Assembly: GCA_963612465.1 (NCBI GenBank) | Contig: CAVDUV010000006.1 | Coordinates: 36,732 to 100,731 of the forward strand | DNA: 64,000 nucleotides | Reading direction: 5' to 3' | Origin: Bacteroidaceae bacterium | Lineage (GTDB): Bacteria > Bacteroidota > Bacteroidia > Bacteroidales > Muribaculaceae | Shown: positions 8,384 to 34,450 of the stretch, piece after piece | How positions within the stretch are numbered: the stretch's first letter is position 1 | Layout: each line of letters opens with the position of its first letter | Position numbers and translations under genes: made by a program | The notes under the pieces: generated by a model | Database searches by the model: none | Seen by the model: the letters and a program-made list of their open reading frames with translations, nothing else | What the model was told of the DNA's origin: nothing

Positions 8384-8389
8384 CTCAGG

Positions 8390-8425
8390 CGCGCTTGGCC
8401 TCGATAGGCTGAGCGCGTTTTTTTT
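8390..8425 (+). terminator. rho-independent terminator after tRNA-Ser
   Basis: Stem cgcgct...agcgcg with an inner gcct/aggc pair, followed by T8. Confidence 0.75.
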
Positions 8426-8468
8426 ATTGTGTGAAAACATGGTGGGCGGCACAGTGGGGCGCGCAGAT

Positions 8469-8516
8469 GAAACAAAAACAAAACGGGAGGAAATCCATTC
8501 GGACTTTCTCCCGTTT
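8469..8516 (-). terminator. rho-independent terminator after the tRNA-Asn pair
   Basis: Stem aaacgggag / ctcccgttt. On the minus strand it is followed by a T-rich run (ttttgtttttgttt). Confidence 0.7.
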
Positions 8517-8517
8517 G

Positions 8518-8591
8518 CGCTTCAAGATGGACTTGAACCAACGACCCCATGATTAACAGTCATGTGCTCTAACCAACTGAGCTATTGAAGC
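8518..8591 (-). tRNA. tRNA-Asn (anticodon GTT), copy 1
   Basis: Reverse complement gcttcaatagctcagttggttagagcacatgactGTTaatcatggggtcgttggttcaagtccatcttgaagcg. Acceptor gcttcaa/ttgaagc. Anticodon loop ctGTTaa. One T-T mismatch in the T stem. Confidence 0.85.
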
Positions 8592-8623
8592 AGGTTGATA
8601 TTTGTTTTGTCTTATTATTCTTG

Positions 8624-8697
8624 CGCTTCAAGATGGACTTGAACCAACGACCCCATGATTAACAGTCATGTGCTCTAACCAACTGAGCTATTGAAGC
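8624..8697 (-). tRNA. tRNA-Asn (anticodon GTT), copy 2
   Basis: Identical 74-nt sequence, 32 nt upstream of copy 1. Confidence 0.85.
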
Positions 8698-17200: not shown

Positions 17201-20200
17201 GGTGCCACTGGCGTGGTTAAGAATGTGACAGTGGGCAGCAAAGCCGTTTATCAACTCTTCTGCTACGGCGGCGCTATTGCCGGTCAGTGCTATGGCCGCA
17301 TTGAGGGCTGCTCTAACTTCGGTACTGTATACACCTACTATTCTCGCTCTGGCGGTATCGTAGGTCAGCTCAACAAGGACGGCGTGGTCAGCGGCTGCTA
17401 CAATGCTGGTAGCGTCTATGTAGACAACAACCAGGCTGGCGGTATTGCCGGCTATGCAGCTCAAGCAACCATCGAAAACTGCCAGAACGCAGGTGAGGTG
17501 GGTGCCGTATACTTCAACTCTTACCAAAAGGAAGGCGTGCAGGCTAAGGCCGGCGGTATCGTTGGTGAAGATTCGAAGTGTGTGATCAAGAATGTGCTCA
17601 ACACCGGTCATGTGGAAACCTACAAGCAGGTGGGCGGTATCAGTGGTGTCACTTCAAGCTCTACATTCACCAATGCAGTGAACTATGGTACTGTGGTTGT
17701 GAAGACCGACAAGTCTACTTCAGGCCACATCGCAGGTGCCAACACAAGCTCTACATTCGAGAATTCATATTATGCAAGCCAGCTGTCGAAACTGGGTGCC
17801 GTGGCTAACGGCAACCACGACGGTGTTGAGGGTGAGACCACAACAAATCTCGCCTCGGGCAGCATCAAGACTCTCTCCGACTCGATATGGACACAGAAGG
17901 CAGGCTGTTATCCCACTCTTGCCGCCACCAGCAATTGGCCTGAGGCTCAACTTGCATCAAAGGCAACTGTGTTCTTCGCCGATGGCAACTATGCAAGCTC
18001 TGTCTTGACTCCCGCCACTCTGGGTAACACCCAAGAGCTGACTTGGTCGGTTAAGACCGGAAAGGCATTCGCTGTTACCGACGGCAAACTTGTGCCCACA
18101 GTGCCCGCATCGGGCGCCGAAGCCGACACTCTGGTTGCTGTCTTTGGCAACTACAAGCGTTACTTGCCCATCGTCACACTCAATGCAGCAATCCTCGAAG
18201 GCAGCGGCACAGCCGAGGCTCCTTACCTCATCAAGACTGTGGCTGACTACAACACTCTGGCCGACTTCGTGAAGTCGACCGGACACGACTACGAGGGCAG
18301 CTACTTCAAGGTGGTCAACGACCTCGATTTCAAGGATGTTGCATTCCAGCCTATTGCCGACGGTCCTAACGGATTTGCAGCCGACTTCAACGGCAACGGC
18401 AAGACGTTCAGCAACATCAGCTACGACACAAGCACCGACAACGGAACTACGGCTCATGCCGTGTTTGGTACCGTGCTTGCCGCAGGTTCTGTGCACGACC
18501 TTACCATCGACGAGTCTTGCAAGTTCGGTTCTTACACCTATCCTGCAGCATTCGTATCGTCGCTTTACGGTAAGCTCTACAACCTCACCAACAAGGCCGC
18601 TGTGGCCGCAGGCAACTACTATGCCGGCGGTATTGCCAGCTTGGCCAATGCTGGTGCGTCAATCAAGAATTGCGCCAACTATGGCGACATCACAGCTAAG
18701 TATGGCTATGCCGGTGGTATCTTCGCCGTCAGCGTTGCCGGCTCTGCTATCCAGGTCGACAGCTGCGTCAACGAGGGCTTAATCTCGTCGGCAAGCTATA
18801 TGGGCGGTATCGCCGCACAGGCATCGGCCAATGTGAATGCAAGCGTCAACCGTGGCGCAATCGCAGCTACTGCCAAATATGCAGGCGGTATGCTTGGTGT
18901 GGCTCTCGCTCCGTCGAGCGCAACCTACTGCCACAACGAGGCCGACATTCTCGCTGTTGAGGATGCTGGCGGTATCTTCGGTCAGGTGGCTGCACACAGC
19001 GCTCCCTACCGCTGCACTATCGACAGCTGCTACAACACTGGCGCAATCACTGCCGCCACAAGCTCTAAGAAAAAGTCGTACTACATGGGCGGTATCGTGG
19101 GCTACGCTACCCGCGGCATCACCGTCAACAAGTGCTACAACATTGGCGAGGTGAAGGCTGAGTCGAGCGACATCATCCTCTACACTGCCGGTGGCATTGT
19201 GGGTTCGAGCAGCGCAACCAGCGCAGGCTACAACTATTTCACCGACTGCTGGAATTCAGCCAACGTGAGTGCATATAACAACGTGGGCGGTATTGGCGGC
19301 GCAATCAGCGGCGACACCACCGCAATAATTGTGCGCTGCTACAACTTGGGCAATATCTCAAGCAACAGCCCCACAGTCTCTAACGCCGGCGGTATTGTGG
19401 GTAATGGCGGATATGAAATCAGCGACAGTTACAATGCAGGTAACGTGACCGGTACTGGCTATCAGATTGGCGGTATCGCAGGTTACCTCACTGGTCACCC
19501 CTACGACTTCCACAATGTGGCCAATTATGGCACGGTGACCGGTACCACTACCAAGTCGACTAAGATCGGCGGTATCGTTGGTATGGGTCGTGTGGACATG
19601 AAGGATTGCTACAACTTTGGCGAAGTGAGTGGCTACGACGCAGTGGCCGGTATCGTGGGTTATCCCGGCAATGCGCTTGCCGAAAGCTACTACACCTATA
19701 TCACCCGCACCTATAATGTAGGTAAGGTGACTGCCACCAATGGCGCAGCAGGAAACATCACCACACTCAACAGCAACTGTAAGTATTATTCTTGCGACTC
19801 GGTTTATTTCGACAGCAGTGTCAACGAGGCTGGTAGCTACGACACCCAAAACGGTGTCAAGGGTATCACCAAGCGTGAGTTTGTCGACCTGAAGATAAGC
19901 GATGCCTTCGAAAATGCCGAGGCCACCTATCCTTCGCTCAAGGTGTTCAAGAACAATGACTACAACAGCTTTGCAGTGGCAATGCTCCTGCTTGCCGACG
20001 GCGAGAAGACCGACAGCGTGACACACAACTTCAAGGTGGGTACTCCCGCAGGTGCTGTGTGGACAGCTTCATCTAACCTTGTGATTGATGGCAACGACGT
20101 GAAACTGGCCAACAAGACCAATGGCGAGAGCGCAACCATCACCCTCACTGTGGGCGACTTCAGCCGCACTTATGAGCTCACGCTCTACTATCCTTCTGGC

Positions 20201-20365
20201 ATCTCGAGCAACATAGCCGACAAGGCAGTTGCCAACCGCGTATACTACAACCTTGCCGGTGTGCGCGTTGATGGCCCGTCGGAATACAACCCGGTAGTGA
20301 TTGAGCGCACCGTCTACACCGACGGCACTTCGGCTTCGGCCAAGGTTATCTACCGAGCCAAGTGA
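14237..20365 (+). CDS. giant (2042 aa) GLUG-motif repeat surface protein with T9SS C-terminal sorting domain
   Basis: Signal peptide MRKFTLMLLCAFMAVLACSA. Three modules each open with GSG/GDG-x-AE-x-P(Y/W)(L/E)I (nt about 15347, 16859, 18200). Each is followed by many roughly 20-25 aa GG(I/L)(A/V)G...N(C/S)YN.G.V repeats. The C-terminus (VYYNLAGVRVDGP...KVIYRAK) is like Por_Secre_tail. Confidence 0.85.
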   Translation: MRKFTLMLLCAFMAVLACSATQSRDEFTFTKVPVASGVAAETATRISATQLASGSVYTDGSLSSKARVVSAARKSPKAKVAIDDFAGSRYVISHATTGVVTAREATVTKVGTDSLSISGFVYSDVTVGAKVDVATGKVTIYPQYVATVQGYSVWICSVDQDKNVYSTTDPIEGTIDESGALHLETAFGFFVTSGDRKGAYLTIGIQNYADVAKVNGRVTTQVIKYDGYFSTKRRSVTPVTDWVYVRQTAADKLRITHLSSDKGYFDFDAKLNYDKTLSIDPQTLLSIAYSGSFCCYKFTETVQDTTVTISAQILSPITGTLTQDGDSAKIALGKWMVGSTSGGVLNLFESSAFSTSASIVFPEKPQANFEGSGTEADPYLIKTAADLKALSVTVNTDASKRGSIKTDVQGNQYYPVYAGTYFALAADIDMGSFKETFDPIGTSVIRFAGTLDGRGHTIKKLQFIDYAYDYVGLFGATAPEATVKNLRFSQPKITTVGYNVGVLAGRNFGTVDGVTVDTATVSTSGYNVGLIGGYNFGTISNVKVHKASIAALGYVGGVAGFCYGNVLSSSVEGATIQLLYKQQFVGGIVGYISRIKGQANSKLLDCSFSGTIYSSASEICMGGIAGEAAYTEIARCYTAGRILSGSSVQNYIAGLVGAAWVCDIHDCYATGVVYNENSAYAAGLVSEDPETSDEYGGTTITNCYAAVQLTTASTDSIAGLVGKPKYITVKNSYFDAQLANINHSEWGKSTAELTSAAGISGFDASVWNFTEGLYPRIKATDTTDVAVVSASPIILASADNVKLVKSDFTYNSAASNVKWRAVQNGSYSTEGGHAFTFNNGVGKLNYQQYTDTVEVSCNNAFKLYFVNIAPMPFKGDGSAENPWEIGTREELNQLISISNNATLTFNGKYIKQTANIDMQGDTIQPIDNDNSGKLHFLGTYDGQKYTIDNFVLSTAGFHAEGNSSGKPAGEFNPRDDRSTYYGGLFGTVGATGVVKNVTVGSKAVYQLFCYGGAIAGQCYGRIEGCSNFGTVYTYYSRSGGIVGQLNKDGVVSGCYNAGSVYVDNNQAGGIAGYAAQATIENCQNAGEVGAVYFNSYQKEGVQAKAGGIVGEDSKCVIKNVLNTGHVETYKQVGGISGVTSSSTFTNAVNYGTVVVKTDKSTSGHIAGANTSSTFENSYYASQLSKLGAVANGNHDGVEGETTTNLASGSIKTLSDSIWTQKAGCYPTLAATSNWPEAQLASKATVFFADGNYASSVLTPATLGNTQELTWSVKTGKAFAVTDGKLVPTVPASGAEADTLVAVFGNYKRYLPIVTLNAAILEGSGTAEAPYLIKTVADYNTLADFVKSTGHDYEGSYFKVVNDLDFKDVAFQPIADGPNGFAADFNGNGKTFSNISYDTSTDNGTTAHAVFGTVLAAGSVHDLTIDESCKFGSYTYPAAFVSSLYGKLYNLTNKAAVAAGNYYAGGIASLANAGASIKNCANYGDITAKYGYAGGIFAVSVAGSAIQVDSCVNEGLISSASYMGGIAAQASANVNASVNRGAIAATAKYAGGMLGVALAPSSATYCHNEADILAVEDAGGIFGQVAAHSAPYRCTIDSCYNTGAITAATSSKKKSYYMGGIVGYATRGITVNKCYNIGEVKAESSDIILYTAGGIVGSSSATSAGYNYFTDCWNSANVSAYNNVGGIGGAISGDTTAIIVRCYNLGNISSNSPTVSNAGGIVGNGGYEISDSYNAGNVTGTGYQIGGIAGYLTGHPYDFHNVANYGTVTGTTTKSTKIGGIVGMGRVDMKDCYNFGEVSGYDAVAGIVGYPGNALAESYYTYITRTYNVGKVTATNGAAGNITTLNSNCKYYSCDSVYFDSSVNEAGSYDTQNGVKGITKREFVDLKISDAFENAEATYPSLKVFKNNDYNSFAVAMLLLADGEKTDSVTHNFKVGTPAGAVWTASSNLVIDGNDVKLANKTNGESATITLTVGDFSRTYELTLYYPSGISSNIADKAVANRVYYNLAGVRVDGPSEYNPVVIERTVYTDGTSASAKVIYRAK

Positions 20366-20416
20366 TAGGCAATAAGCACACAAATGCCCGCTTATAGGCA
20401 GGCATCCCAATAACGC

Positions 20417-20452
20417 AAGAGCCGCGAGGACCCAAGTCCCCGCGGCTCTTTG
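20417..20452 (+). terminator. hairpin terminator after the giant gene
   Basis: agagccgcg ... cgcggctct is a 9-bp GC-rich stem followed by ttt. Confidence 0.55.
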
Positions 20453-20599
20453 CATATCACATGCAGTAGAAGAGTGAAACAAAACCAATCAGCGAGCAGA
20501 ACAGGGGCAAGCCCTATGGGATAATGCCATTGCCAATGCAGCATTGCAACAAATGCCACAATAACGAATGTTTTTCAGTGCTCTCGGCATGCCGCATCC

Positions 20600-20911
20600 A
20601 TGCCGATTGGCAGTGAATCCGTTACTTTTACAGGCCGCACCACTCGCTCGGAGTATTGGTGGTTTTATCTTGCCTGCATAATTATCAGCTTTGCCATTGG
20701 TCTTGTCGACGGACTTTTTGGGGAAAAGAGTATTGTGTCGAATATTGTGTCGCTGGGTCTCTGCATCCCAATGCTTGCTGTGGGCATCAGGCGGATGCAC
20801 GACACGGGCCACTGTGGCTGGTTTATCCTAATCCCCATCTACAATTTGGTGCTCCTTTGCACCAAGGGAGAGTCGCAAGCCAATGAGTATGGCGATGTGT
20901 CTGCCAAGTAA
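20600..20911 (+). CDS. DUF805 family inner-membrane protein
   Basis: FTGRTTRSEYWWFYL ... GIRRMHDTGHCGWFILIPIYNLVLL is characteristic of DUF805 (YhaH/YhaI-like). Confidence 0.75.
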   Translation: MPIGSESVTFTGRTTRSEYWWFYLACIIISFAIGLVDGLFGEKSIVSNIVSLGLCIPMLAVGIRRMHDTGHCGWFILIPIYNLVLLCTKGESQANEYGDVSAK

Positions 20912-20937
20912 GGCTCAAGGGCTGAACGTATAAAATT

Positions 20938-20974
20938 AAAGGCTGGCCGTGCGCGGATGCGCGGGCCAGCCTTT
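20938..20974. terminator. GC-rich hairpin (bidirectional terminator), left copy
   Basis: aaaggctggcc-gtgcgcggatgcgcg-ggccagccttt. Lies 27 nt after the DUF805 stop. Confidence 0.7.
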
Positions 20975-20996
20975 ACTGTGGGGTTGTGGTAACGGG

Positions 20997-21062
20997 TTAG
21001 TGGTCGTAGTGGGCGAGGGCGCGGCGCAGGTTGTCGGCCAGCTGCACGCGCATCTCTTTGGG
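20997..21062 (-). pseudogene. orphan 3' fragment (last 21 codons plus stop) of the WYL-regulator gene
   Basis: The reverse complement reads PKEMRVQLADNLRRALAHYDH-TAA. The intact gene ends PKEMRVQLADNLRRALALYDH-TGA at 26228. No upstream coding continuation. Confidence 0.85.
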
Positions 21063-21502
21063 GGATCGTGAAGTGACATGCGGCTACGTAATCGCTATTG
21101 CACTGGTACAACATTTTTGTTGTGTGTGACAAGGATAAATGTAAAAATATAGTTATATTTGCCGTGCACTTATATTCGAAAGGATAGAGGTGCTACATAT
21201 TAATACGGACGTTACTTAAGCGTTACCTCTACATTCAAAACTCGCAATTTTGTAAAAAACTTCGGAGGTGAAGTCGTAGCAGCGTCCACGTTTTGCGCAT
21301 ATGTCGCCAGCCCATACTTTCCGCTATGGAAGGTATGGGTCTTGGTGCTTGCATATTGGGCGTGGGCTGACTGGGTTACTTATTCTGAAGTTTGGGCATG
21401 CGAGGCCTTGAATGTGGAATAAGACAAGTACAGATTCCTACGCCCTTTTTGTGTTATGTTCAGCTATGGGGAATTCAGTTGGACGCCATAAAAACGTATG
21501 CT

Positions 21503-21730
21503 ATGATATTCATAGGCCCTATTATAAAGGCCGAGCTAGATCGCCAGGAGCGCAGCGTCAGTTGGTTTGCTCGCAAGATAGGTTGTGATCGCTCCACAGT
21601 GTATCGCATATTTCAAAGAGCCAGCATCGATACACAGTTGTTGATGCGCATCTCTACCGTACTTGACCATGACTTCTTTGCTGATATATCGCAGAGCATA
21701 CACCATGTACCATATTCAGATTCTCGCTGA
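21503..21730 (+). CDS. small helix-turn-helix DNA-binding protein (75 aa)
   Basis: ORF 21392..21730. In-frame ATG at 21503. HTH-like SVSWFARKIGCDRSTVYRIFQRASIDTQLL. Confidence 0.6.
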   Translation: MIFIGPIIKAELDRQERSVSWFARKIGCDRSTVYRIFQRASIDTQLLMRISTVLDHDFFADISQSIHHVPYSDSR

Positions 21731-21764
21731 TTGCGGCACAAGTGTGGCAATTGTGCAGCACAGA

Positions 21765-21799
21765 TTTCTTTTACGTAACTGCTATTGCCAATATCTTTG
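21765..21799 (+). promoter_or_regulatory. candidate Bacteroides-type promoter for the peptide/radical SAM operon
   Basis: TATCTTTG (21792-21799) fits the -7 consensus TAnnTTTG. A T-rich tttctttt lies at about -33. Motif match only. Confidence 0.3.
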
Positions 21800-21860
21800 C
21801 GTTGTTAAAGAAAAATCCGAATCGCTTGAAAGGACGTAGGAAGTAAACTTTAACAAAAAT

Positions 21861-21897
21861 GAGAAAGCCGAAATGCAAGAAAGAGAGTAGGCAAAAA
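21861..21897 (+). repeat. 37-bp perfect direct repeat, copy A (leader upstream of the 23-aa ORF)
   Basis: gagaaagccgaaatgcaagaaagagagtaggcaaaaa is identical to 22000..22036. Ends 18 nt before the ATG at 21916. Confidence 0.95.
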
Positions 21898-21915
21898 AAT
21901 TAATACTAAGATGAA

Positions 21916-21987
21916 ATGATAGTAGGAATTGGATCAATGCTGGGGATTATGTTGATTGGATATTTAGCCTTTAAAATTTTCCATTGA
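21916..21987 (+). CDS. 23-aa hydrophobic peptide MIVGIGSMLGIMLIGYLAFKIFH (putative small membrane peptide)
   Basis: Hand-translated; below the length shown in the ORF track. Sits at the same spacing from the 37-bp repeat as the 49-aa ORF. No Cys. Confidence 0.35.
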   Translation: MIVGIGSMLGIMLIGYLAFKIFH

Positions 21988-21999
21988 CAAACCAATACA

Positions 22000-22036
22000 G
22001 AGAAAGCCGAAATGCAAGAAAGAGAGTAGGCAAAAA
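22000..22036 (+). repeat. 37-bp perfect direct repeat, copy B (leader upstream of the 49-aa ORF)
   Basis: Identical to 21861..21897. Ends 18 nt before the ATG at 22055. Confidence 0.95.
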
Positions 22037-22054
22037 TTTTTAATTAGAACCAAA

Positions 22055-22204
22055 ATGAAAAAGTATCAGAAACCCAAAGTCGTGGCAAAAAATCTTCCGT
22101 CTGGTTCATATGCAGCTGGTTGTCCAGCGAACCGTTCCGGAGAGACTTGTTTTATGTTCAATGTGCAAGGACCCACATGCAAATATTGTGAACGCTCGAA
22201 ATAA
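22055..22204 (+). CDS. 49-aa Cys-containing putative RiPP precursor MKKYQKPKVVAKNLPSGSYAAGCPANRSGETCFMFNVQGPTCKYCERSK
   Basis: Hand-translated; below the length shown in the ORF track. Lys-rich leader-like N-terminus, 4 Cys in the C-terminal 27 aa. Lies immediately upstream of two RRE-rSAM-SPASM genes. Confidence 0.6.
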   Translation: MKKYQKPKVVAKNLPSGSYAAGCPANRSGETCFMFNVQGPTCKYCERSK

Positions 22205-22222
22205 AGGCAACGAAATTATTTT

Positions 22223-22258
22223 AATTCAAGGGGAGGATTCCCCTTGAATTTTATTCTT
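22223..22258 (+). terminator. 12-bp perfect hairpin plus T-rich tail between peptide gene and radical SAM genes (possible attenuator)
   Basis: aattcaagggga-ggat-tccccttgaatt followed by ttattctt. Lies 19 nt after the peptide stop and 9 nt before the rSAM start. Confidence 0.6.
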
Positions 22259-22266
22259 ATCATGTG

Positions 22267-23736
22267 ATGTATATTCAGCTATCAAAAAATTCCTTTATAA
22301 GGTGTACCCCAAATTATGGGTATATTACAAATCAATTAACTAGGCAAGATAGGGTATATAACGAATCTGGAGCAAGTTTTCTTAAAAAAATAGCACGTAA
22401 GCCGTTGAAGCTGGAAAATATAGTGGGGCAACTTTGTGATGAATATCCAGATGAACTCAAAGAAACCATTGAAAAAGACTTTGTCTCTTTTATAGAAGAT
22501 TTGGCAAATCATGGATTTGTAATACTGGGGGATAGTATTGATGACCTTGCAAAAAAAGAACAGGAATTTTCTTATTCAATAGACGCTCCGTTCACAATGA
22601 CGGAAGACTTTACACAGCAGACCCAAGAAAGGGTTAGCGAAAACACACAAGATTTTTTCCTCGAGGAAGTGCAAAAACGTCCAATGATTTCTGCATTGCA
22701 GTTTGAGCTGTCAAGTAGGTGTAATGAGAGGTGTATACATTGTTACATACCGAACGACAAGAAAAATAAAGGATTTGACATGCCTACGCAAGAAGTGAAA
22801 AGAGTGCTGGATGAATTTTCAGATATGGGTGGACTTTATGTTACATTGTCTGGTGGAGAAGCCTTTTTACACAATGATATCCTTGAAATAATTGAGTATT
22901 GTAGAAAGAAGGATTTTAGGGTTACAATATTGTCCAATTTAATTTCTGTAAAAGAAGAACATGTACAGGCATTGAAAAAGATGAATGTCTCTCTCATCCA
23001 GACCTCCCTATATTCTATGAATCCAGAAATCCATGATTATATAACTACTGTTAAGGGATCGTTTGAGAGAACTAAGTCGTCTATAGAAAAATTGGTGAAA
23101 TCCGATATTCCAGTCCAGATAAGTTGTCCTGTTATGAAAGCCAATAAAGATAGTATTCGCGATGTTTTACTATATGCCAGGTCTTTAAAGATAAAGGCTC
23201 AAACCGATTATATTATGATGGCACGCTCAGATCTGGATACATCTAATTTGGCTAATAGATTGTCCTTGGAAGAGACAGAGAAAGTAATCCAAGACATACT
23301 ACAATTTGATGCTGATTACATTGACAATACGCTTATGCAGAAACCTCTTTCTGATGAAGTGAAATTTAACATGGACAGATTTAAGTCTCAACCAGTTTGC
23401 GGTGTGGGCTATGATAATTGCTGTATAACTGCAAATGGAGACGTTTATCCGTGTGCAGGATGGCAGGACTATGTGATAGGTAATGTGTATCGTCAGCCCC
23501 TAAAGGAAATTTGGGAAGGTAGTAAAAAAGTGCAGGCACTACGTAAAATCACTCAAGCATCCTTTCCTTCATGTCTTAATTGTGAAGCACTTAACTATTG
23601 TAATCGATGCCTTGTTAGAAATTACAACGAAACGAATGGAAATATGTTTGAAATCCCAAAACGTTTTTGTGACATAGCTTTCTTGAACAAAAAGCTGACA
23701 GAAAAATTTGAACACGATTATATATACAAAAAATAG
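22267..23736 (+). CDS. radical SAM/SPASM peptide-modifying enzyme with N-terminal PqqD-like (RRE) domain, paralog 1
   Basis: CNERCIHCY (CxxxCxxC), SGGEAFL. C-terminal Cys cluster CGVGYDNCCITANGDVYPCAGW ... CLNCEALNYCNRC. N-terminal roughly 90 aa resemble PqqD. GTG at 22264 is an alternative start. Confidence 0.85.
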   Translation: MYIQLSKNSFIRCTPNYGYITNQLTRQDRVYNESGASFLKKIARKPLKLENIVGQLCDEYPDELKETIEKDFVSFIEDLANHGFVILGDSIDDLAKKEQEFSYSIDAPFTMTEDFTQQTQERVSENTQDFFLEEVQKRPMISALQFELSSRCNERCIHCYIPNDKKNKGFDMPTQEVKRVLDEFSDMGGLYVTLSGGEAFLHNDILEIIEYCRKKDFRVTILSNLISVKEEHVQALKKMNVSLIQTSLYSMNPEIHDYITTVKGSFERTKSSIEKLVKSDIPVQISCPVMKANKDSIRDVLLYARSLKIKAQTDYIMMARSDLDTSNLANRLSLEETEKVIQDILQFDADYIDNTLMQKPLSDEVKFNMDRFKSQPVCGVGYDNCCITANGDVYPCAGWQDYVIGNVYRQPLKEIWEGSKKVQALRKITQASFPSCLNCEALNYCNRCLVRNYNETNGNMFEIPKRFCDIAFLNKKLTEKFEHDYIYKK

Positions 23737-23742
23737 TTCCGC

Positions 23743-25083
23743 GTGTTTGTTAAAAGATTAGACTCGACAATAGTGAGAGCACTGAAAGATGGTTCTGCTC
23801 TTGCGTTTAATGTTGAAACGGGTGAACATATCGTCTTAGATGAAGTAGGAGGTGCTTTTATTAGTAAGGTGTTGACCAAAGCGCAGGATGTGGATAATAT
23901 ATGTTTATCGCTTATGTCAATGTACTATGGTGTCTCGCTATCTGAATTAAGGACTGATTTTATTGGATTTATTACGGAATTAGGGGACAAGGGAATTTTA
24001 AAGATTTCGGAAAAACCTGAGAATGAGCATGAACTTACTGATATACAGATAGAAATTATAACTGGTTGCAATGAGCGCTGCGTGCACTGTTACATACCAA
24101 ATGCGGAAAAAAACAAGTGTGTGTTGATGCCTAACAAAATGGTGCACTCAATTATTGACCAATTCAAAGTGTTAGGCGGCAAGAGCATAACATTGTCAGG
24201 AGGAGAACCGCTACTTCATCCAGACTTGTGCGATATGATAAATTATTGTGCATTAAACAATTTGCGAATTAACATTTTCACAAACCTAACTCTACTTGAC
24301 GATAAAATAACATCGGCATTATTAGACTCGAATATTGGCGTAGTTCAAACTTCACTATATTCAATGAATCCAAATGTGCATGATGATATAACAAAAGTCC
24401 CAGGTTCATTTGCAAAGACTTTGCATGGAATAGAGAAATTAAAAGAAAATGGGATTGAAGTGCAAATTGCGTGTCCAGTGATGAGTAAAAATAAGGAAGG
24501 TCTAAGTGAATTGGTCGATTTTGCTGTTGGCAATGGCATTAATTTAAGGCTAAACTCTCAGTTAATGGCTCAAAATAATGGCGATGATACTTTTGTCAAA
24601 GGCAATAGGCTCTCATTGATACAAAACAAGGAACTATTATGTGAATTGATGACCAATCATGCAGAATATGTAATACACCATTTATTTGAGTTGTCTGATT
24701 TGGATGCAGCATTGATTGATAACCCCAAAAAAACCTGTGAAAGTTCGATTTGTTCTGCAGGGAAAAATTCATGCAGCATATTGGTAAATGGCAATGTAAT
24801 TCCTTGCCCAAGTTGGGTGGAATGTGTGTTGGGGAATGTTTTTGTCTCATCATTAAGTGATATTTGGAATGGAAGTGCTCTCTTAAAGCATTTACGCCAT
24901 TTCAATAAACAAAAGTTTTATCCCGAATGTTTAGAGTGCAAGGCTTTATCGTTTTGCAAAAGATGTTTCGCTCAGAATGCATCCGGGAATAGTAAATGTT
25001 TCCTTGATATTGATGGGAGAGTGTGTGACGAGGCTTTTTTAAGGAAGGAGTTTTTTGATCGATACGCAAATGGAAATGGCTGA
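23743..25083 (+). CDS. radical SAM/SPASM peptide-modifying enzyme with N-terminal PqqD-like (RRE) domain, paralog 2
   Basis: GTG start 6 nt after the paralog 1 stop. CNERCVHCY, SGGEPLL. SPASM-like CSAGKNSCSILVNGNVIPCPSW ... CLECKALSFCKRC. Clearly homologous to paralog 1 along its length. Confidence 0.85.
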   Translation: MFVKRLDSTIVRALKDGSALAFNVETGEHIVLDEVGGAFISKVLTKAQDVDNICLSLMSMYYGVSLSELRTDFIGFITELGDKGILKISEKPENEHELTDIQIEIITGCNERCVHCYIPNAEKNKCVLMPNKMVHSIIDQFKVLGGKSITLSGGEPLLHPDLCDMINYCALNNLRINIFTNLTLLDDKITSALLDSNIGVVQTSLYSMNPNVHDDITKVPGSFAKTLHGIEKLKENGIEVQIACPVMSKNKEGLSELVDFAVGNGINLRLNSQLMAQNNGDDTFVKGNRLSLIQNKELLCELMTNHAEYVIHHLFELSDLDAALIDNPKKTCESSICSAGKNSCSILVNGNVIPCPSWVECVLGNVFVSSLSDIWNGSALLKHLRHFNKQKFYPECLECKALSFCKRCFAQNASGNSKCFLDIDGRVCDEAFLRKEFFDRYANGNG

Positions 25084-25396
25084 TGAATATGTTTCAATGA
25101 TAGTAGCAGGATCTTTTACTGTTTTAGGGGCTATGGTTAGCTCAATATCACATTGGTTAACGTCACGAAACAGTACAAGAACGCATAAGTTGGAAAAATA
25201 TGTCATGCAATTAGGAGATCAAGTTAAATCTTATTGGTACTTGGAGCGGTTATATGCTCACGAGCTATCTGAATTAAAAAAATGTAACGAGGAAACAACA
25301 TTGAAAAGGAACCGAGCTAAAATAGCAGATCAAGTGGGTGTTCGGCCCAAAATGACAGCTAATGATGTAGATAAACTTTTGGATGATATTCGGTGA
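25070..25396 (+). CDS. small protein with one N-terminal TM helix and charged helical tail
   Basis: ORF 25055..25396. ATGs at 25070 and 25076 overlap the rSAM-2 stop. Helix MIVAGSFTVLGAMVSSISHWL. No family recognised. Confidence 0.55.
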   Translation: MEMADEYVSMIVAGSFTVLGAMVSSISHWLTSRNSTRTHKLEKYVMQLGDQVKSYWYLERLYAHELSELKKCNEETTLKRNRAKIADQVGVRPKMTANDVDKLLDDIR

Positions 25397-26148
25397 TGAT
25401 TGTTGATAGCCACGTACATGTAGGACAATTCAATGATAAATATTTTTCCCCTGCGTTTGTATCAAGGCTGATGTCAAGCGTAGGGGTTGACTATTATGCA
25501 GTGTCGTCTACCACAATGTGTAATGAGGATTACCCAAAGGTGTTGTCTGAAATAAATGAATTGATTGGTCTTGATGGTGAACGAGTGTTGCCTGTTATTT
25601 GGATTACGCCATATGGACTTAAGGGTAGCATTGCATGGTTTCTTGAGTCGGATGTTAGGTGGCGCTGCTTGAAGGTTCATCCATTTCTACACCCCAATGA
25701 CTGGGAACCGAATGGCTCACAGTTTTGCGACGTGATAGACATTGCTCGTGAACTGCATGTGCCATTGTTAATACACACAGGGCATGATAAAAGTTGCATG
25801 TGTGGCAAATATGAGGAAATGATTGCTGAAAATGTTGATGTTGATTTCATCTTGGCTCATGGTCAACCATTGAAGCAGGTGATACCTATATTAGCTCGTT
25901 ATATGAATGCTTATGCAGATTCTGCTTTTATGCCTATTGGGCAAATGAGAGAGATCATTGACAATGACTTAGCACATAAACTTTTGTGGGGGACAGATAT
26001 GTGTGTGCCGTTACATTTTTATTCCCATATAGATCTTGCTCAGTGTTATGGCAAAAAACTGAAAGACTTTCGCGCGGTTTGCTCACAAGAGCAATATGTG
26101 TCAGTGACAAGTATTAATGCAAGAAAATTGTTTGGCATTTCATTGTGA
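25396..26148 (+). CDS. amidohydrolase-2 type metal-dependent TIM-barrel hydrolase
   Basis: N-terminal DSHVHV (HxH), LLIHTGH, ILAHG, WGTDMCVP. The ATG overlaps the previous stop (TGATG). Confidence 0.7.
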   Translation: MIVDSHVHVGQFNDKYFSPAFVSRLMSSVGVDYYAVSSTTMCNEDYPKVLSEINELIGLDGERVLPVIWITPYGLKGSIAWFLESDVRWRCLKVHPFLHPNDWEPNGSQFCDVIDIARELHVPLLIHTGHDKSCMCGKYEEMIAENVDVDFILAHGQPLKQVIPILARYMNAYADSAFMPIGQMREIIDNDLAHKLLWGTDMCVPLHFYSHIDLAQCYGKKLKDFRAVCSQEQYVSVTSINARKLFGISL

Positions 26149-26167
26149 TGGTTGAAGACATTAAAAA

Positions 26168-26293
26168 TAAAGGCTGGCCGTGCGCGGATGCGCGGGCCAG
26201 CCTTTATTGTGGGGTTGTGGTAACGGGTCAGTGGTCGTAGAGGGCGAGGGCGCGGCGCAGGTTGTCGGCCAGCTGCACGCGCATCTCTTTGGG
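26168..26293. repeat. 126-bp direct repeat, right copy (island boundary; part of the intact WYL gene 3' end)
   Basis: Matches 20937..21062 with 3 mismatches. Confidence 0.95.
26169..26205. terminator. GC-rich hairpin (bidirectional terminator), right copy
   Basis: Same hairpin as 20938..20974. Lies 20 nt after the amidohydrolase stop and 22 nt after the WYL gene stop. Confidence 0.7.
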
Positions 26294-27127
26294 CCGCAGC
26301 ACTTCTATTGAGGGGCCCAACGACAGCAGTTTCTGCATTAGGTCGTAGGTGAACCGCATGCGGTAGGTGAATATCGAGTAGGCATCGTGCAACTCTTCGC
26401 GCTGCGAGTGGTGCAGCGGCAGTCCGCGCAGATATTTGGCCTGTGTCACATTGGCTTTAATCACAATGTCCTTTGGCTCGCTTTGGTCGGTGCTGATGCC
26501 GAAGCAGTCGGCATAATACTCCCGCGGGCTGAAGCTTTCGGGCATCGTGAAACTGTGGTTGGTTATGACAAGGTGGCTCATGCGGTCGAGCGAGTAGGTC
26601 TTGATGCACTTGTCGGCCACGTTGAATCCTATCACATACCACCGTTGCTCGAAGATTTTAACAAAGTATGGCTCCACTTTCACGCCATAGTTCAAGTTCA
26701 CACGGCTATAGTTGTTGTAGCTGAAGGTGATGCGCTTGTTTTGCCGCATTGCCTCAATCACCACCGGCAGGTTGCCGCGGCTCGAGGGCACGTCTTCGAG
26801 CATAATGCGCGCCGACATGTCGTGTGAGTCGCTTAGCACGCCGCTTATCGACACCGAGTTGAGCAGCCACTCCTGGAACTGCAGGTTGCTTTCGCTGGTG
26901 TCAGGGTCGATATAGTATTCGTAGGTCGACGTGTCGCACATGATGTCGATGCTGAACGTGTCGGCAATGCCATGGCGGTAGTTATAGAACGTGCGTCTGG
27001 CCAGTGGCTCACCCTCGCTGATGTCGGCCTCGAGCCAGAGCCGGTTGAGCTCCTCGCGGGTGATGCGCTTGTAGCGCTTGATGGTGGTGATAATCCACAC
27101 ATATTTGTTGATCAGATTGCGTGCCAT
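26228..27127 (-). CDS. WYL domain-containing transcriptional regulator
   Basis: 299 aa. N-terminal wHTH-like region, central ...FEQRWYVIGFNVADKCIKTYSLDRM (WYL-type motif), C-terminal WCX-like domain. Confidence 0.75.
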   Translation of the reverse strand: MARNLINKYVWIITTIKRYKRITREELNRLWLEADISEGEPLARRTFYNYRHGIADTFSIDIMCDTSTYEYYIDPDTSESNLQFQEWLLNSVSISGVLSDSHDMSARIMLEDVPSSRGNLPVVIEAMRQNKRITFSYNNYSRVNLNYGVKVEPYFVKIFEQRWYVIGFNVADKCIKTYSLDRMSHLVITNHSFTMPESFSPREYYADCFGISTDQSEPKDIVIKANVTQAKYLRGLPLHHSQREELHDAYSIFTYRMRFTYDLMQKLLSLGPSIEVLRPKEMRVQLADNLRRALALYDH

Positions 27128-27160
27128 TTTCTCTGCGGAGTGATTGCTTGGGTGGGGGAG

Positions 27161-28621
27161 TTATGCGTTGACGGCTTTCTTGCCCGTCGACAGCAGGGCA
27201 AGGCCGGCCATGGTGAGCACGGCGTTGAGCAGGAGCAGCTCAAAGCCCAGCGTGTAGCCAAACGAGTTTTTGAGCCATTGCTGCACAAAGAAGCTGATGA
27301 TGGGTGCTGCGATGCACACAACGGGCACAAGGCGGTCACGCACGGCGCTCTTGCACATCATGCCAAAGGCAAAGAGGCCCAGGATGGGGCCGTAGGTGTA
27401 GCTTGCCAGGGTGTAGACGGCGCTTATGGCGTCGCTGTTGCTGATGAGGTAGAACACATAGATAACGATGCCCATGCCGGCAGCCATCGACACGTGCACG
27501 AGTTTGCGTGTGTGCGACAGCGTAGAGTCGTCTTGCTTGCGGTCGGCCTCAAGGATGTCGACGGTAAACGATGTGGTGAGCGATGTCAGGGCCGAGCCGG
27601 CAGCCGAGTAGGCAGCGGCTATGAGGCCGAGGATAAACAGGATGCCCACAATGATAGGCATGCCGGGGTCGGCAGCCACAAGGCCAAACAGCTCATCGCT
27701 CTTTTCGGGCTGGGCAAGGCCTTTGGCGCGGGTGTAGAGCACGAGCAGTGTGCCCAGAATGAGGAACAGGCTAATCACAAAGAATTGTGTGATGCCGCTC
27801 ACGATAAGGTTTTTCTGCGACTCCTTGGCGTTCTTGCAGGCAAGGCTGCGCTGCATCAGGTCTTGGTCGAGTCCGGTGGTGGCGATTACCATAAACACGC
27901 CGGCAATAAACTGCTTCCAGAAGTAGGTGCCCTCTTTGGGATTGTCGAAGAAGAACACGCGCGATGTCTCGTCGCCTGCCACAGCTTTCACCATGCCGGC
28001 GAAGTCATATCCGAGGCCCTTGGCAATGAAGAAGATGCATAGCACCACCGACATCACCAGGCAGAAGCTCTTGAGCGTGTCGGTCCAAATCACGGTCTTC
28101 ACACCGCCTTGCAGCGTGTACAGGAAAATGAGGGCGATGGTGGCCACCACATTGACTATAAACGGCACTCCAAGCGGACCGAACACAAGCAATTGCAGCG
28201 TGACGCACACCACATAGAAACGCACGGCCGCACCAAGCATTTTGCTGATGAAGAAGAACCATGCACCGCTCTTGTGGGTGCCGGCACCGAACCGCTGCTC
28301 AAGGTAGCCGTAAATCGACACCAAATTGCGCTTGTAGAACAGCGGAATGAGCACATAGGCAATGACAAAGTAGCCCACCACGAAACCCAGCACCATTTGC
28401 AGGTAGCTGAATCCCTTGGCCACCACCATGCCGGGAACTGAGATGAATGTGACACCCGAGATGGGGGCACCGAGCATGGCAATAGCCACAATAAACCACG
28501 GCGCCTGGCGGTTGCCGTTGAAAAAACTTGCGTTGTCGCTGCCTCGTGAGGCTATCCACGACACCAGAAACAAAACGATGAAGTAGCCGACAATTGTGGC
28601 CAATACAATCCAAGGGGTCAT
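27161..28621 (-). CDS. sodium:solute symporter family transporter
   Basis: 486 aa, about 13 TM helices, SSF-like N-terminus (ASRGSDNASFFNGNRQAPWFIVAIAMLGAPISGVTFISVPG). Confidence 0.85.
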   Translation of the reverse strand: MTPWIVLATIVGYFIVLFLVSWIASRGSDNASFFNGNRQAPWFIVAIAMLGAPISGVTFISVPGMVVAKGFSYLQMVLGFVVGYFVIAYVLIPLFYKRNLVSIYGYLEQRFGAGTHKSGAWFFFISKMLGAAVRFYVVCVTLQLLVFGPLGVPFIVNVVATIALIFLYTLQGGVKTVIWTDTLKSFCLVMSVVLCIFFIAKGLGYDFAGMVKAVAGDETSRVFFFDNPKEGTYFWKQFIAGVFMVIATTGLDQDLMQRSLACKNAKESQKNLIVSGITQFFVISLFLILGTLLVLYTRAKGLAQPEKSDELFGLVAADPGMPIIVGILFILGLIAAAYSAAGSALTSLTTSFTVDILEADRKQDDSTLSHTRKLVHVSMAAGMGIVIYVFYLISNSDAISAVYTLASYTYGPILGLFAFGMMCKSAVRDRLVPVVCIAAPIISFFVQQWLKNSFGYTLGFELLLLNAVLTMAGLALLSTGKKAVNA

Positions 28622-28672
28622 TTCAAATAAAGTGTTATTTTGTTAATAGGGTATAAAATGCGTCGGGCCGAA

Positions 28673-29917
28673 TCATTCGCTGTAGAGCAGGTACTGCTGA
28701 CGCTGTTTTTTGAATTTCTCGATATCGGGTTGCCATGAGGCTTTTATCTCGTCGGCACTCTTGCCGGCCATGATCATTTTGCGCAACCCGTTGCCACCGG
28801 CCAGCAGGTCGAAGAAGCGGGTGAAGAATTTCTCGCCAATGTTGAGGGTGCGGTAGGCGTCGATCACATAGTTGAGGTTGATGCCGCCGGCTATCACACT
28901 GTCGGGGTCGGCATTGCGCAGGTCGGTGCCGTAGCACAGCTTGTCGAGTTGCGGTGGGTTCTTGGCTCCGGGGATGCTGCGCGGTGTGAAGGTGAAATCG
29001 TGACCGGCTTTCATGTCGGGATGGCCATAGACTTGGAATGGAGCCAGTGTGCCACGGCCCAGACTCACCGGTGTGCCCTCAAAGAAGCATGTCGACGGGT
29101 AGAGGTAGACCGATGTCATGTTGGGCAGGTTGGGCGACGGAGCTATGGGCAGCTGGTAGCGAGTGTGGCGTGTGTAGTTCTCGCAAGGCACAACCGTGAG
29201 ATTGGCTTTTTTGCCGCCGTCGAGCCATCCTTCGCCGTTGGCCATGCGGGCAAGCTCGCCCATTGTCATGCCATACACGATGGGTATGGGCAGATAGCCG
29301 ACACCCGACTTGAACTTCATGTCGAGAATCGGTCCGTCGACATACATTATGTTTGGGTTCGGGCGGTCAAACACCACCACTTGCTTGCCATACTTGTTGC
29401 AGGCATCCATTATGTGAATCATTGTCACATAGTAGGTGTAGAATCGCAAGCCCACATCTTGCAGGTCGACCACCACCACGTCCACCTTGTCCATGGTTTC
29501 CTTGCTGGGCATAGGCAGAGATCCGTCGTAGAGCGACGCGATGGGTATGCCTGTGGGCTCATCTATGCTGTTGCCCACCTTCTCTCCCGCATCGGCCTTG
29601 CCGCGGAATCCGTGTTCGGGCGACAGAATGGTTACTACTTTTATGCCTTGGCCGAGCATCACGTCGAGCACGTGCTTGTTGCCCACGATGCCCGTCTGGT
29701 TGCTTAGCAGGGCCACGCGCTTGCCCTTGAGCAGTGGCACATATACATCGGTGCGTGCTGCGCCCACCACCACTGGAGCATTTTTGCGCTCGCAGTGTGT
29801 GGCTGCGCATGAGGCCTTGTTGTTGCTGTTGTTGTCGGCACAAGCCGTTATGGCCTGGGCCGAAGCAAAACATGCGGCGCAGGCAAGTGTGAGAATTGAT
29901 GTTTTAAGCAGATTCAT
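28673..29917 (-). CDS. DUF1343 family protein (NamZ-like exo-beta-N-acetylmuramidase)
   Basis: Signal peptide. RTDVYVPLLKGKRVALLSNQTGIVG, VVVDLQDVGLRFYTY and similar segments are typical of DUF1343. Confidence 0.75.
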   Translation of the reverse strand: MNLLKTSILTLACAACFASAQAITACADNNSNNKASCAATHCERKNAPVVVGAARTDVYVPLLKGKRVALLSNQTGIVGNKHVLDVMLGQGIKVVTILSPEHGFRGKADAGEKVGNSIDEPTGIPIASLYDGSLPMPSKETMDKVDVVVVDLQDVGLRFYTYYVTMIHIMDACNKYGKQVVVFDRPNPNIMYVDGPILDMKFKSGVGYLPIPIVYGMTMGELARMANGEGWLDGGKKANLTVVPCENYTRHTRYQLPIAPSPNLPNMTSVYLYPSTCFFEGTPVSLGRGTLAPFQVYGHPDMKAGHDFTFTPRSIPGAKNPPQLDKLCYGTDLRNADPDSVIAGGINLNYVIDAYRTLNIGEKFFTRFFDLLAGGNGLRKMIMAGKSADEIKASWQPDIEKFKKQRQQYLLYSE

Positions 29918-31444: not shown

Positions 31445-31467
31445 AATCAGTTGATTTTAAAAGTTTG

Positions 31468-32919: not shown

Positions 32920-33098
32920 AATATTAATGTGCTGTTACGCTTGGTTTTTCTGCGACTATAATAAAATCGTGTGCGGCAAATATATTAATTGTTTGTCAAA
33001 CACCACCCCAAAAATGTAAAATATTTTAATACACATTGCATTTTTTAAAAAGTGTTTTAAAAAGCACACCCCTGCGTAGAGACAAAGTGCAAAGTCAC

Positions 33099-33138
33099 AA
33101 AAAAATTCATGCCAACGCTTTTACGGGTTGGCATGAAT
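33099..33138 (-). terminator. rho-independent terminator after serpin copy 2
   Basis: Same hairpin as copy 1, followed by T7 on the minus strand. Confidence 0.75.
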
Positions 33139-33176
33139 TACTTGTATGGCACTAATGTGCTATTGAAAAAGCGGTG

Positions 33177-34427: not shown

Positions 34428-34450
34428 AATCAGTTGATTTTAAAAGTTTG

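Follow-up and report, generated by a model that had tools for sequence, protein, structure and literature searches.

A predicted RiPP-type cassette between direct repeats of a WYL gene 3' end, carried in a strain-variable block of a Muribaculaceae genome

Genes and repeats at the locus

The window (the whole 64,000-nucleotide stretch of DNA that was analysed) carries an island in the spacer between two convergent genes, arranged as follows: to its left is a gene for a small DUF805 membrane protein (20600-20911, plus strand; Pfam PF05656, E-value 4e-23), and to its right is the intact gene of a WYL/WCX regulator (26228-27127, minus strand; Pfam WYL and WCX). Sequence comparison within the window gives a direct repeat pair at 20931-21062 and 26162-26293 that is 132 nt long and 97% identical with a spacing of 5231, and alignment with the empty site of a related species (L126, below) extends the duplicated segment to 20920-21062 and 26150-26293, or about 143 bp, the outer 12 bp of which are more diverged. 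A first-pass annotation of this DNA had described the repeats as 126 bp long with three mismatches and an offset of 5231 bp, and they are indeed present at that offset and longer than was thought. The left copy lies 8 bp (extended repeat) or 19 bp (132-nt repeat) from the end of the DUF805 gene, and the three substitutions between the copies are fixed in all ten island-bearing samples.

Sequence and folding agree with the earlier description of each copy as a hairpin terminator plus the last 21 codons and stop codon of the WYL gene. The hairpins (20938-20975 in the left copy, 26169-26206 in the right) are strong bidirectional terminators with folding energies of -32 to -34.5 kcal/mol on the plus strand and -29 on the minus strand (z-scores -3.8 to -6.1). 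The right copy runs unbroken into the intact WYL open reading frame, whose functional 3' end it supplies (ending ...ALALYDH-TGA), and the left copy holds an orphan WYL 3' fragment (20997-21062, TAA plus 21 codons read on the minus strand, ending ...ALAHYDH-TAA) next to DUF805, an arrangement that had been proposed before and that reading of the frames upholds. The window has exactly two occurrences of the hairpin core, where shuffled sequences predict none, and among all fetched loci of the species the repeat element is present at these two positions only. The repeat-bracketed structure was recovered in six independent MAGs and four Logan assemblies and so is not an assembly artefact.

Inside the island the G+C content is 0.34-0.42, against 0.50-0.59 in the host DNA around it, so the AT shift suspected from spot counts is real; the summary values are 35-38% for the interior and 52-58% for the host. 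Judged from its sequence, this AT-rich interior (21063-26149) came by horizontal transfer and is a biosynthetic cassette of the RiPP type with a predicted modification chemistry. It encodes an XRE-type HTH protein, whose gene is preceded by a leader, as well as small peptides, one Cys-rich precursor, two radical SAM (rSAM)/SPASM maturases, an amidohydrolase and a putative small membrane protein. The conserved cassette is separated from the left repeat by a 76-bp junction segment (21063-21138) that matches neither the related cassettes at loci L021 and L024 nor any fetched locus outside the species. A candidate Bacteroidetes-type -7 promoter box, TATATTTG (21155-21162, plus strand), which we take to be such a box from the TAnnTTTG consensus, marks the left end of the cassette and is invariant across three cassette lineages. 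It is followed by a conserved non-coding leader of about 330 nt (21166-21499, plus strand) upstream of the HTH gene, for which a long rod-like fold is predicted; this leader is 86% identical to that of L021 and 70% identical to that of L024, RNAalifold gives 107 pairs of which 17 have compensatory changes, it has no match in Rfam, and full-length nhmmer matches are confined to three HTH-bearing cassette groups. The HTH gene encodes a 74-aa XRE/Cro-type protein (21506-21730, plus strand), the presumed cassette regulator, with weak Pfam matches to HTH_26, HTH_28 and HTH_3; its homologue in L023-L028 is called HTH_3.

Downstream of it are three copies of a 44-nt motif (21803-22036, plus strand; starts at 21803, 21854 and 21993), two of which resemble the Rfam DUF805b RNA at sub-threshold scores, and the second copy is followed by a 23-aa hydrophobic open reading frame (21916-21987). 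The gene of the 49-aa Cys-rich precursor peptide MKKYQKPKVVAKNLPSGSYAAGCPANRSGETCFMFNVQGPTCKYCERSK (22055-22204, plus strand) was read from the sequence and precedes a terminator-like hairpin (22223-22250); by tblastn, precursor homologues adjoin the rSAM gene in most of more than 80 related loci. Both maturases (22267-23736 and 23743-25083, plus strand) match Pfam Radical_SAM, SPASM and PqqD (2e-27, 3e-13 and 1e-7 for the first, in which the PqqD-like or RRE domain is N-terminal), and their rSAM motifs of the CxxxCxxC type are CNERCIHC and CNERCVHC. Their NCBIfam scores are far under all equivalog cut-offs (at best 141 bits against a cut-off of 500 bits). The differing calls for the second rSAM gene among strains (316 and 389 aa) come from runs of N in scaffolds and from start-codon choices and not from decay. 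The last two genes encode a small protein of 108-113 aa with a putative N-terminal hydrophobic segment and no family match (25055-25396, plus strand) and a metal-dependent hydrolase of the Amidohydro_2 family (25393-26148, plus strand; PF04909, 5e-9), whose stop codon is 2 nt ahead of the right repeat.

The cassette resembles rSAM/SPASM RiPP clusters of the sactipeptide/ranthipeptide type in being a compact operon with a short Cys-rich precursor directly upstream of PqqD-bearing rSAM/SPASM enzymes. It differs from them in reaching no NCBIfam equivalog, in its constant Amidohydro_2 partner, in the DUF805b-like motifs before tiny hydrophobic reading frames, and in having no transporter or classical leader peptidase. 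The cassette is not a known defence system, since its PADLOC similarity to viperins is limited to the generic rSAM domain, and the literature collection searched has no paper on it or on the DUF805b context. Scans of the interior reading frames with Pfam, NCBIfam and PADLOC found no integrase, transposase or relaxase, as had been claimed from the translations, and 20 large reading frames tested elsewhere in the window include no recombinase either. No terminal inverted repeats that pair the cassette ends were found.

Empty sites and the strain-variable block

The first-pass annotation had proposed that relatives should have an empty site with one repeat copy between the DUF805 and WYL genes, and two related species (L109-L113 and L126) do carry DUF805, one repeat copy and WYL, collinear with the island locus. 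These single-copy sites identify the repeats as a duplication of the insertion target. Neither of the findings that had been named as contrary to an island, a dispersed terminator repeat or a lack of empty-site alleles, was made: there are two copies only, and empty sites exist. In these species DUF805 adjoins WYL and is 78-79% identical in nucleotide sequence to the window copy. Both repeat copies in the window share a lineage-specific non-coding spacer and hairpin loop, unlike the nearest empty sites, and each has derived substitutions of its own that are fixed in all carriers. The shared spacer and loop suggest that the duplication arose within the lineage.

What is found at this position in other strains of the same species? 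Conspecific strains L127-L134 are 99.4-99.5% identical to the window up to 20457 and from 26325 onward, and between these points the sequences are unalignable or densely mismatched. In these strains 241 bp and a different WYL tail replace 20458-26324, and DUF805, both repeats and the cassette are all missing; DUF805 is also missing from the conspecific H1 strains and from L005 and L006. The strain-variable block (20458-26324, 5,867 bp) has sharp breakpoints at 20457/20458 and 26324/26325 and includes DUF805 and its upstream region, the left repeat, the cassette, the right repeat and 31 bp of WYL further out, so that it reaches 462 bp past the left repeat on one side and 31 bp past the right repeat on the other. 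Because strains with near-identical flanks lack DUF805, the repeats and the cassette together, the island in this species travels in a recombined block of 5.9 kb and not as a repeat-bounded unit; DUF805 is part of this imported block and not of the cassette. Near-identical flanks, alternative sequence between sharp breakpoints and a mosaic WYL gene make this a hotspot allele. Of the three mechanisms that the first-pass annotation had entertained, capture by homologous recombination holds for the present species in the form of this block, and the attL/attR reading is disfavoured (below).

The mosaic pattern and the breakpoint assign about the last 32 codons of WYL (gene nt ~803-900) to the imported block, and this tail is 97-100% identical to the WYL genes of the empty-site species. 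Whether the window tail is imported and that of L005 native is undecidable from L005, L109 and L126 and was settled with conspecific P0379-type strains. Another mosaic WYL is present in one island-bearing strain. Compared with the empty-site species, the block has 78% identity in DUF805 but 97-100% in the WYL tail, and the history is accordingly more mosaic than one transfer. The conspecific strains, with their 99.5% identical flanks and DUF805-less spacer, show that the insertion event did not take place in the usual background of the present species. The direction of the haplotype exchange (block gained, or replaced in the majority strains) would follow by parsimony from the sister species L005. 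A donor lineage hosting the original insertion was not found among the loci compared, and carrier contigs either have the site filled or end at the repeat.

Origin of the duplication

We think it probable that a foreign RiPP-type cassette was inserted with a target duplication of about 143 bp and that a larger block was later spread by homologous recombination. The insertion itself would have produced the duplication, in either of two ways: by the joining of a linear fragment into a staggered break, with fill-in of the overhangs, or by a single RecA-type crossover that integrated a circle on which the segment was present beforehand. It may have been retained because it left WYL intact and gave DUF805, the cassette operon and WYL a terminator each. 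The whole block, from DUF805 through the two repeats and the cassette to the WYL tail, would then have moved into or between lineages by homologous recombination through two crossovers, of which the left one fell at the Glug terminator (20457/20458) and the right one within WYL (~26324/26325). The present distribution would need no on-board recombinase, and the two repeats would stay a substrate for precise RecA-mediated loss. It counts against this explanation that three independent end points fall within about 30 bp in WYL, that no donor lineage came to light among the loci compared and that the history is more mosaic than one transfer. A phage or plasmid vehicle is not supported: the phage collection has no match to the cassette, IMG/VR has SPASM-level matches only, and the matches in the plasmid collection are confined to rSAM genes of 36% identity on IncF plasmids of enterobacteria.

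Several known systems share parts of this structure. Recombinase-free hotspots of horizontal transfer, where homologous exchange takes place between conserved genes, have the same sharp-edged presence/absence block, near-identical flanks, mosaic neighbouring core gene and absence of mobility genes, but inside the block here there is also a duplication of ~143 bp of target, left by an earlier insertion in which flanking homology was not the driver. Campbell-type "ends-in" integration by a single RecA crossover likewise places an insert between direct repeats of shared homology, with no dedicated recombinase, and is reversible through recombination between them; it requires a circle that carries the 143-bp host segment beforehand, however, and no circle, plasmid or phage carrier was found. 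The known duplications made by bacterial transposition are far shorter than ~143 bp, and, unlike an IS or transposon, the island has no transposase and no end-pairing inverted repeat, with a duplication of ~143 bp here and of 78-234 bp across sites. Unlike typical integron cassettes, the island is a multi-gene operon with its own putative promoter, and the window reading frames tested include no integrase. An IMEX would be expected at the chromosomal dif site between dif-like repeats of 28 bp; the island repeat is 143 bp and half coding.

Are similar duplications found at related cassettes? The family is large (more than 3000 clusters and at least 565 metagenome matches, with the Amidohydro_2 hydrolase as the invariable partner) and was found in 32 distinct flank contexts; the annotated neighbourhoods inspected around homologous cassettes contain no integrase. 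Four or five of the 32 contexts are bracketed by direct repeats of 78-234 bp that are unrelated between sites, against none of 41 control intervals: flanking repeats score 46-221 bits at five sites, the cassette-free controls no more than 30 bits and inverted-orientation comparisons no more than 37 bits. The repeats measure 132 bp at the window locus, 104+24 bp in the rplQ-gyrB group, 78 bp at L055, 234 bp at L069 and about 98 bp at L021. At the rplQ-gyrB locus, two sets of contigs with the L17 homologue have different downstream neighbours and no synteny to gyrB. Two other candidate target duplications were rejected, the repeat at L047 being an internal DUF805b-like regulatory motif and that at L041 paralogous coding sequence.

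These repeats might mean that the cassettes, or in a narrower form those RiPP cassettes of Muribaculaceae/Bacteroidales that bear the HTH gene and the leader, make up a mobile unit without a recombinase of its own, which some trans-acting machinery (or host repair, in the narrower form) inserts near terminators, duplicating about 0.1 kb (~80-230 bp) of target each time, with spread and loss by RecA only thereafter. The excess over all 41 controls, the lack of relation between repeats of different sites, and the presence of repeats in all three cassette groups with the HTH gene and conserved leader speak for it. Against it, about 27 of the 32 sites have no repeats, and those at L069 and L021, with 70-72% identity, are weak; the cassettes lack conserved motifs at their ends as well as inverted repeats, and a roughly three-fold spread in repeat length gives no sign of a molecular ruler. 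That the repeats come from the host was checked against empty sites, and verified, at the window locus only. We regard both forms as unlikely.

Somewhat less likely still is site-specific integration, in which an element bearing a surrogate WYL 3' end (attP) was inserted by a tyrosine or serine integrase encoded elsewhere or since deleted, the repeats being attL and attR. A duplicated 3' end that leaves its gene whole is what integration classically produces (phage 21 and e14 in icd; islands in tRNA and tmRNA genes), and the repeat geometry fits: as in such islands and prophages, the repeats bracket compositionally deviant foreign DNA and relatives have a single-copy empty site. Unlike them, the island has no integrase on board or nearby; its 5.1-kb interior is fully occupied by the cassette, with no integrase pseudogene, and the 20 large reading frames (above) supply none. 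The copies have a (near-)identical spacer and loop distinct from those of the nearest empty sites, which makes an element-borne surrogate from elsewhere unlikely; the repeat instead copies the local lineage's own non-coding spacer. Homologous cassettes elsewhere are flanked by unrelated repeats or none, with no att core shared by independent insertions, and the polymorphic unit within the species is larger than the repeat-bounded segment, its boundary not being at the repeats.

It is very improbable that the left copy is what remains of a second, tandem WYL gene that the cassette later largely replaced. Deletion of the rest of a duplicate can leave an orphan 3' fragment, and the window has tandem gene duplication elsewhere (serpin/C10 pairs, 30194-35902), but this requires the cassette to end on its right side precisely at the duplication junction, 2 nt past the amidohydrolase stop codon, and no relative has two WYL copies among at least 20 loci examined. 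Least credible of all, a dispersed terminator or REP-like repeat that flanks the region by chance would account for the strong palindromic hairpin but is refuted within the data at hand by its two copies in 64 kb (at the same positions in every fetched locus of the species), by the fact that half of it codes for WYL and runs on into the gene, and by the exactly one copy in empty sites.

Meaning for gut Bacteroidales

The locus is a worked example of how a biosynthetic cassette without mobility genes can become a strain-variable trait in a family of gut commensals. Its history would have two layers: first an old insertion, in which ~143 bp of target was duplicated so that the adjoining gene and the terminators survived, and then homologous recombination, by which lineages exchanged the whole surrounding block. 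Two cautions follow: repeat-bracketed islands are not automatically att-site elements, and a same-species "empty site" can differ greatly from the site that the repeats predict. If recurrent flanking duplications of 0.1 kb prove general, they would point to an insertion route outside current catalogues of mobile elements. The cassette family is abundant and uncharacterised, and thus new modified peptides of gut Bacteroidales might be found among its products.

Direct repeats of the island and single-copy sites in relatives

The first-pass annotation described the island as bracketed by near-identical direct repeats, and a repeat search of positions 19000-28500 bears this out: the single outstanding direct repeat there is 20931-21062/26162-26293 (132 nt, 97% identity, spacing 5231), and alignment to an empty site in a related species (L126, below) shows that the duplicated segment reaches 20920/26150 and is thus widened to ~143 bp. 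ORF reading and folding agree with the claim that each copy combines a terminator-like hairpin with the last 21 codons and stop of the WYL regulator gene; the right copy is the genuine 3' end of the WYL/WCX gene (26228-27127, - strand, 299 aa), and the left copy is an orphan WYL 3' fragment of 21 codons plus stop. Predicted folding energies of the hairpin are -32 to -34.5 kcal/mol for the + strand and -29 kcal/mol for the - strand (z-scores -3.8 to -6.1); flanked by A-rich DNA 5' and T-rich DNA 3', it looks like a bidirectional terminator that would serve the convergent DUF805 (20600-20911, +) and WYL (-) genes. The annotation had allowed that the segment might be a dispersed terminator repeat, and this is rejected, since the 38-nt hairpin core is present exactly twice in the 64-kb window (0 in shuffles) and the repeat occupies only those two positions across the fetched loci of the species.

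All contigs that carry the exact window WYL, DUF805 or first radical-SAM (rSAM) protein are island-bearing (6 MAGs and 4 Logan assemblies), and the same set of 3 substitutions separates the left and right repeat copies in every one of them. Samples SRR13434689, SRR13434694, SRR13434698 and SRR13434699 are among those with the island. One derived change is also private to each copy: the left has TAA in place of TGA, and the right has Leu in place of His. Sites without the island came to light in the neighbourhoods of WYL homologues. In two related species (L109-L113 and L126; WYL 82-83% identical) DUF805 adjoins WYL with one copy of the terminator and WYL tail between them, which is the single-copy empty site that had been predicted for relatives. 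These sites are collinear both with the left flank and left repeat of the window and with its right repeat and WYL. The spacer and hairpin loop are common to both window copies and different from those of the empty sites; the repeats are therefore a duplication of the local target. The single-copy sites thereby support the earlier structural interpretation, an inserted island with a duplicated WYL 3' end. That the repeats are a surrogate sequence imported by the element was considered and rejected because both copies share the local lineage's own spacer and hairpin loop.

An AT-shifted interior had also been claimed from spot counts, and G+C is indeed 0.34-0.42 between the repeats versus 0.50-0.59 outside. 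In 15000-29000 the coding strand of host genes is C-rich, giving a negative GC skew where genes are on the + strand and a positive one where they are on the - strand; the + strand genes of the island have a G-rich coding strand with a skew of +0.1 to +0.3, opposite to the host genes, and this reversed skew is a second compositional sign of foreign origin.

Content of the cassette

The island interior is a compact + strand operon. It begins with a 76-bp segment (21063-21138) that has no match in the fetched loci outside this species, and the left end of the cassette has a Bacteroidetes-type -7 box on the + strand, TATATTTG, followed by a conserved non-coding leader of ~330 nt (21166-21499) that lies between this promoter and a gene for a 74-aa XRE-type HTH protein (+). 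A 44-nt motif is present in three copies in 21803-22036 (+), the second of which precedes a 23-aa hydrophobic ORF and the third a gene for a 49-aa Cys-rich peptide, after which a hairpin follows. Downstream are genes for two rSAM/SPASM enzymes (+), each with a PqqD-like domain at its N terminus, for a protein of 108-113 aa (+) that seems to have a hydrophobic segment near its N terminus, and for an Amidohydro_2 hydrolase (+) whose stop codon is 2 nt before the right repeat. By its layout the cassette is a predicted RiPP cluster of the rSAM/SPASM kind. Its enzymes approach none of the NCBIfam equivalog cut-offs (best 141 bits versus 500), and the cargo is therefore an uncharacterised member of such clusters.

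The interior ORFs have no integrase, transposase or relaxase match, as the annotation had it, and PADLOC returned only generic rSAM-domain matches on the cassette. The repeat search found no terminal inverted repeats pairing the two island ends, and the 20 large ORFs examined elsewhere in the window include no recombinase and are all housekeeping genes.

The leader has counterparts in homologous cassettes at other loci (L021 2967-3301; L023-L028/L038/L039 8667-8995). RNAalifold predicts from three lineages a long rod-like fold with compensatory changes in 17 of 107 pairs, and the leader has no match in Rfam. Full-length copies are confined to HTH-bearing cassette groups; a ~100-nt sub-motif is weakly matched in L067 and L083. 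Two of the three copies of the 44-nt motif score 27.6 and 22.5 bits against the Rfam DUF805b RNA, below its gathering score of 35.6, and no copy was found upstream of the neighbouring DUF805 gene. The motif sits ahead of tiny ORFs, which in the window are the 23-aa hydrophobic peptide and the 49-aa precursor. Strains L011, L017 and L018 have an extra ~105-bp module behind the first motif copy that encodes a 22-aa hydrophobic peptide, MVYGIIGFVLLFLIIAFVGRGD (motif and module at 1340-1455 in L017), and in L055 a motif of the same type directly adjoins the right repeat.

A strain-variable block and recombination at the WYL gene

The loci of L005, a sister species of the window's species (WYL 91% identical), and of L006 (78%) are syntenic with the window and contain neither DUF805 nor the island; their terminator and WYL tail differ from the window's. 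The window WYL gene is L005-like to ~nt 800 and L109/L126-like beyond. A variant in its 90%-identity cluster, P0379, agrees with the window protein over 267 residues and then continues into another tail of 30 residues; contigs with this variant far outnumber those with the window-type WYL. At least 24 contigs (L127-L134) represent the P0379 context. They match the window at 99.4-99.5% identity as far as 20457 and again from 26325 on, and judged by this identity these strains are clearly conspecific with it. Between the breakpoints they have 241 bp, in which DUF805, the repeat and the cassette are all missing, so the polymorphic unit is the 5,867-bp block 20458-26324, which extends past the left repeat by 462 bp and past the right repeat by 31 bp. 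Breakpoints this sharp in otherwise near-identical DNA are the hallmark of allelic exchange through homologous recombination. This larger block is exchanged between lineages by that route, and capture by homologous recombination, one of three mechanisms that the annotation offered, is demonstrated for the present species by the L127-L134 breakpoints.

An island-bearing strain, GCA_963590315.1 (L114 3103-4002), has a mosaic WYL gene of window and L126 type that is window-like at nt 1-380, L126-like at nt ~380-860 and window-like again in the repeat. This pattern indicates that two species recombined here recently, the exchange ending at the island boundary, and it is further evidence of cross-lineage recombination at the locus. 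The lineage in which the target was duplicated must have had an L109/L126-like DUF805-terminator-WYL site, and the finished repeat-cassette-repeat structure was then imported into the present species. By parsimony, with L005 as the reference, the haplotype of the majority, which has no island, would be the ancestral one; the change may also have gone the other way.

Three independent rearrangement end points lie within ~30 bp at 26293-26325 (WYL nt ~803-835), namely the inner end of the duplication, the conspecific-haplotype breakpoint and the L005 switch to a different tail; the cluster could be a recombination hotspot or a coincidence. Elsewhere in the window, a serpin gene and a peptidase C10 (streptopain-like) gene form a tandemly duplicated pair at 30194-35902. 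The number of pairs differs among conspecific strains: the window has two, L131 has one, and L127, L128, L130, L132 and L133 have just the serpin. A RecD/PIF1-like helicase gene (AAA_30, UvrD_C_2) followed by ORFs of 192 and 480 aa, neither with a Pfam match, occupies 4714-8208 (-) beside tRNA genes at 8296-8697 and may be an uncharacterised accessory module.

Cassettes at other loci and the origin of the duplication

At E <= 1e-30, homologues of the first rSAM protein form more than 3000 clusters, the majority 55-68% identical to it, and metagenomes gave at least 565 matches. The core conserved across loci is precursor, rSAM/SPASM enzyme and amidohydrolase. Flanks were usable for 51 loci and form 32 clusters, which puts the cassette in a wide variety of chromosomal contexts. 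For example, one cassette (88% identical, homologous to window 21139-26148) lies between an ABC-2 permease and MacB in a 60% G+C genome and another between rplQ and gyrB. No integrase was found in the annotated neighbourhoods inspected around homologous cassettes, and no phage or plasmid carrier of the cassette was found when one was sought as a vehicle. The nearest named relatives of the window WYL protein and of the L17 protein at the L024 cassette locus are Muribaculaceae, and the host most likely belongs to that family. Seven conjugative plasmids, enterobacterial or from Photobacterium, carry full-length rSAM/SPASM homologues (36-37% identity, E 1e-98); in the only context inspected, the IncF E. 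coli plasmid CP099011.1 (L123, 86495-87931), the rSAM gene adjoins a small serine recombinase gene.

Cassette-flanking direct repeats stand out in 5 of the 32 contexts: the window (132 bp, 221 bits), the rplQ-gyrB group (104 + 24 bp, 82-95% identity, 100-168 bits), L055 (78 bp, 96%, 128 bits), L069 (234 bp, 70%, 102 bits) and L021/L022 (about 98 bp, 72%, 46 bits). Control values were at most 30 bits for 41 cassette-free intervals and at most 37 bits for inverted-orientation comparisons, and ~27 of the 32 contexts have no flanking repeats. A flanking repeat at L047 was rejected as a target duplication, being an internal regulatory motif. The repeat sequences are unrelated from site to site, and all three cassette groups with the HTH gene and conserved leader belong to the repeat-flanked set. 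This recurrence is suggestive, with host origin of the repeats established at the window locus only.

The island was thus inserted between two convergent genes, with ~143 bp of the target duplicated and no recombinase on board. It resembles an integrase-type island, yet it has neither a recombinase nor a shared att core. Classical site-specific integration, in which the repeats would be attL and attR, is argued against by the lack of an integrase, by the lineage's own non-coding spacer and hairpin in both copies, by the unrelated repeats at other cassette loci and by a within-species polymorphism that does not stop at the repeats. The block behaves instead like a recombinase-free hotspot allele and has the defining property of one.

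Exchange by homologous recombination explains the present species' copy. The duplication itself would date from the original insertion, in which either a linear fragment was ligated into a staggered break whose ends were filled in, or a circle already carrying the segment integrated through a single crossover. It would then have been kept because WYL stays intact and all three transcription units get terminators. We consider it unlikely that the cassettes have a recombinase-less insertion mechanism that makes 0.1-kb target duplications. What stands out is that so long a target duplication occurs with no recombinase present, and that it may recur at other loci.
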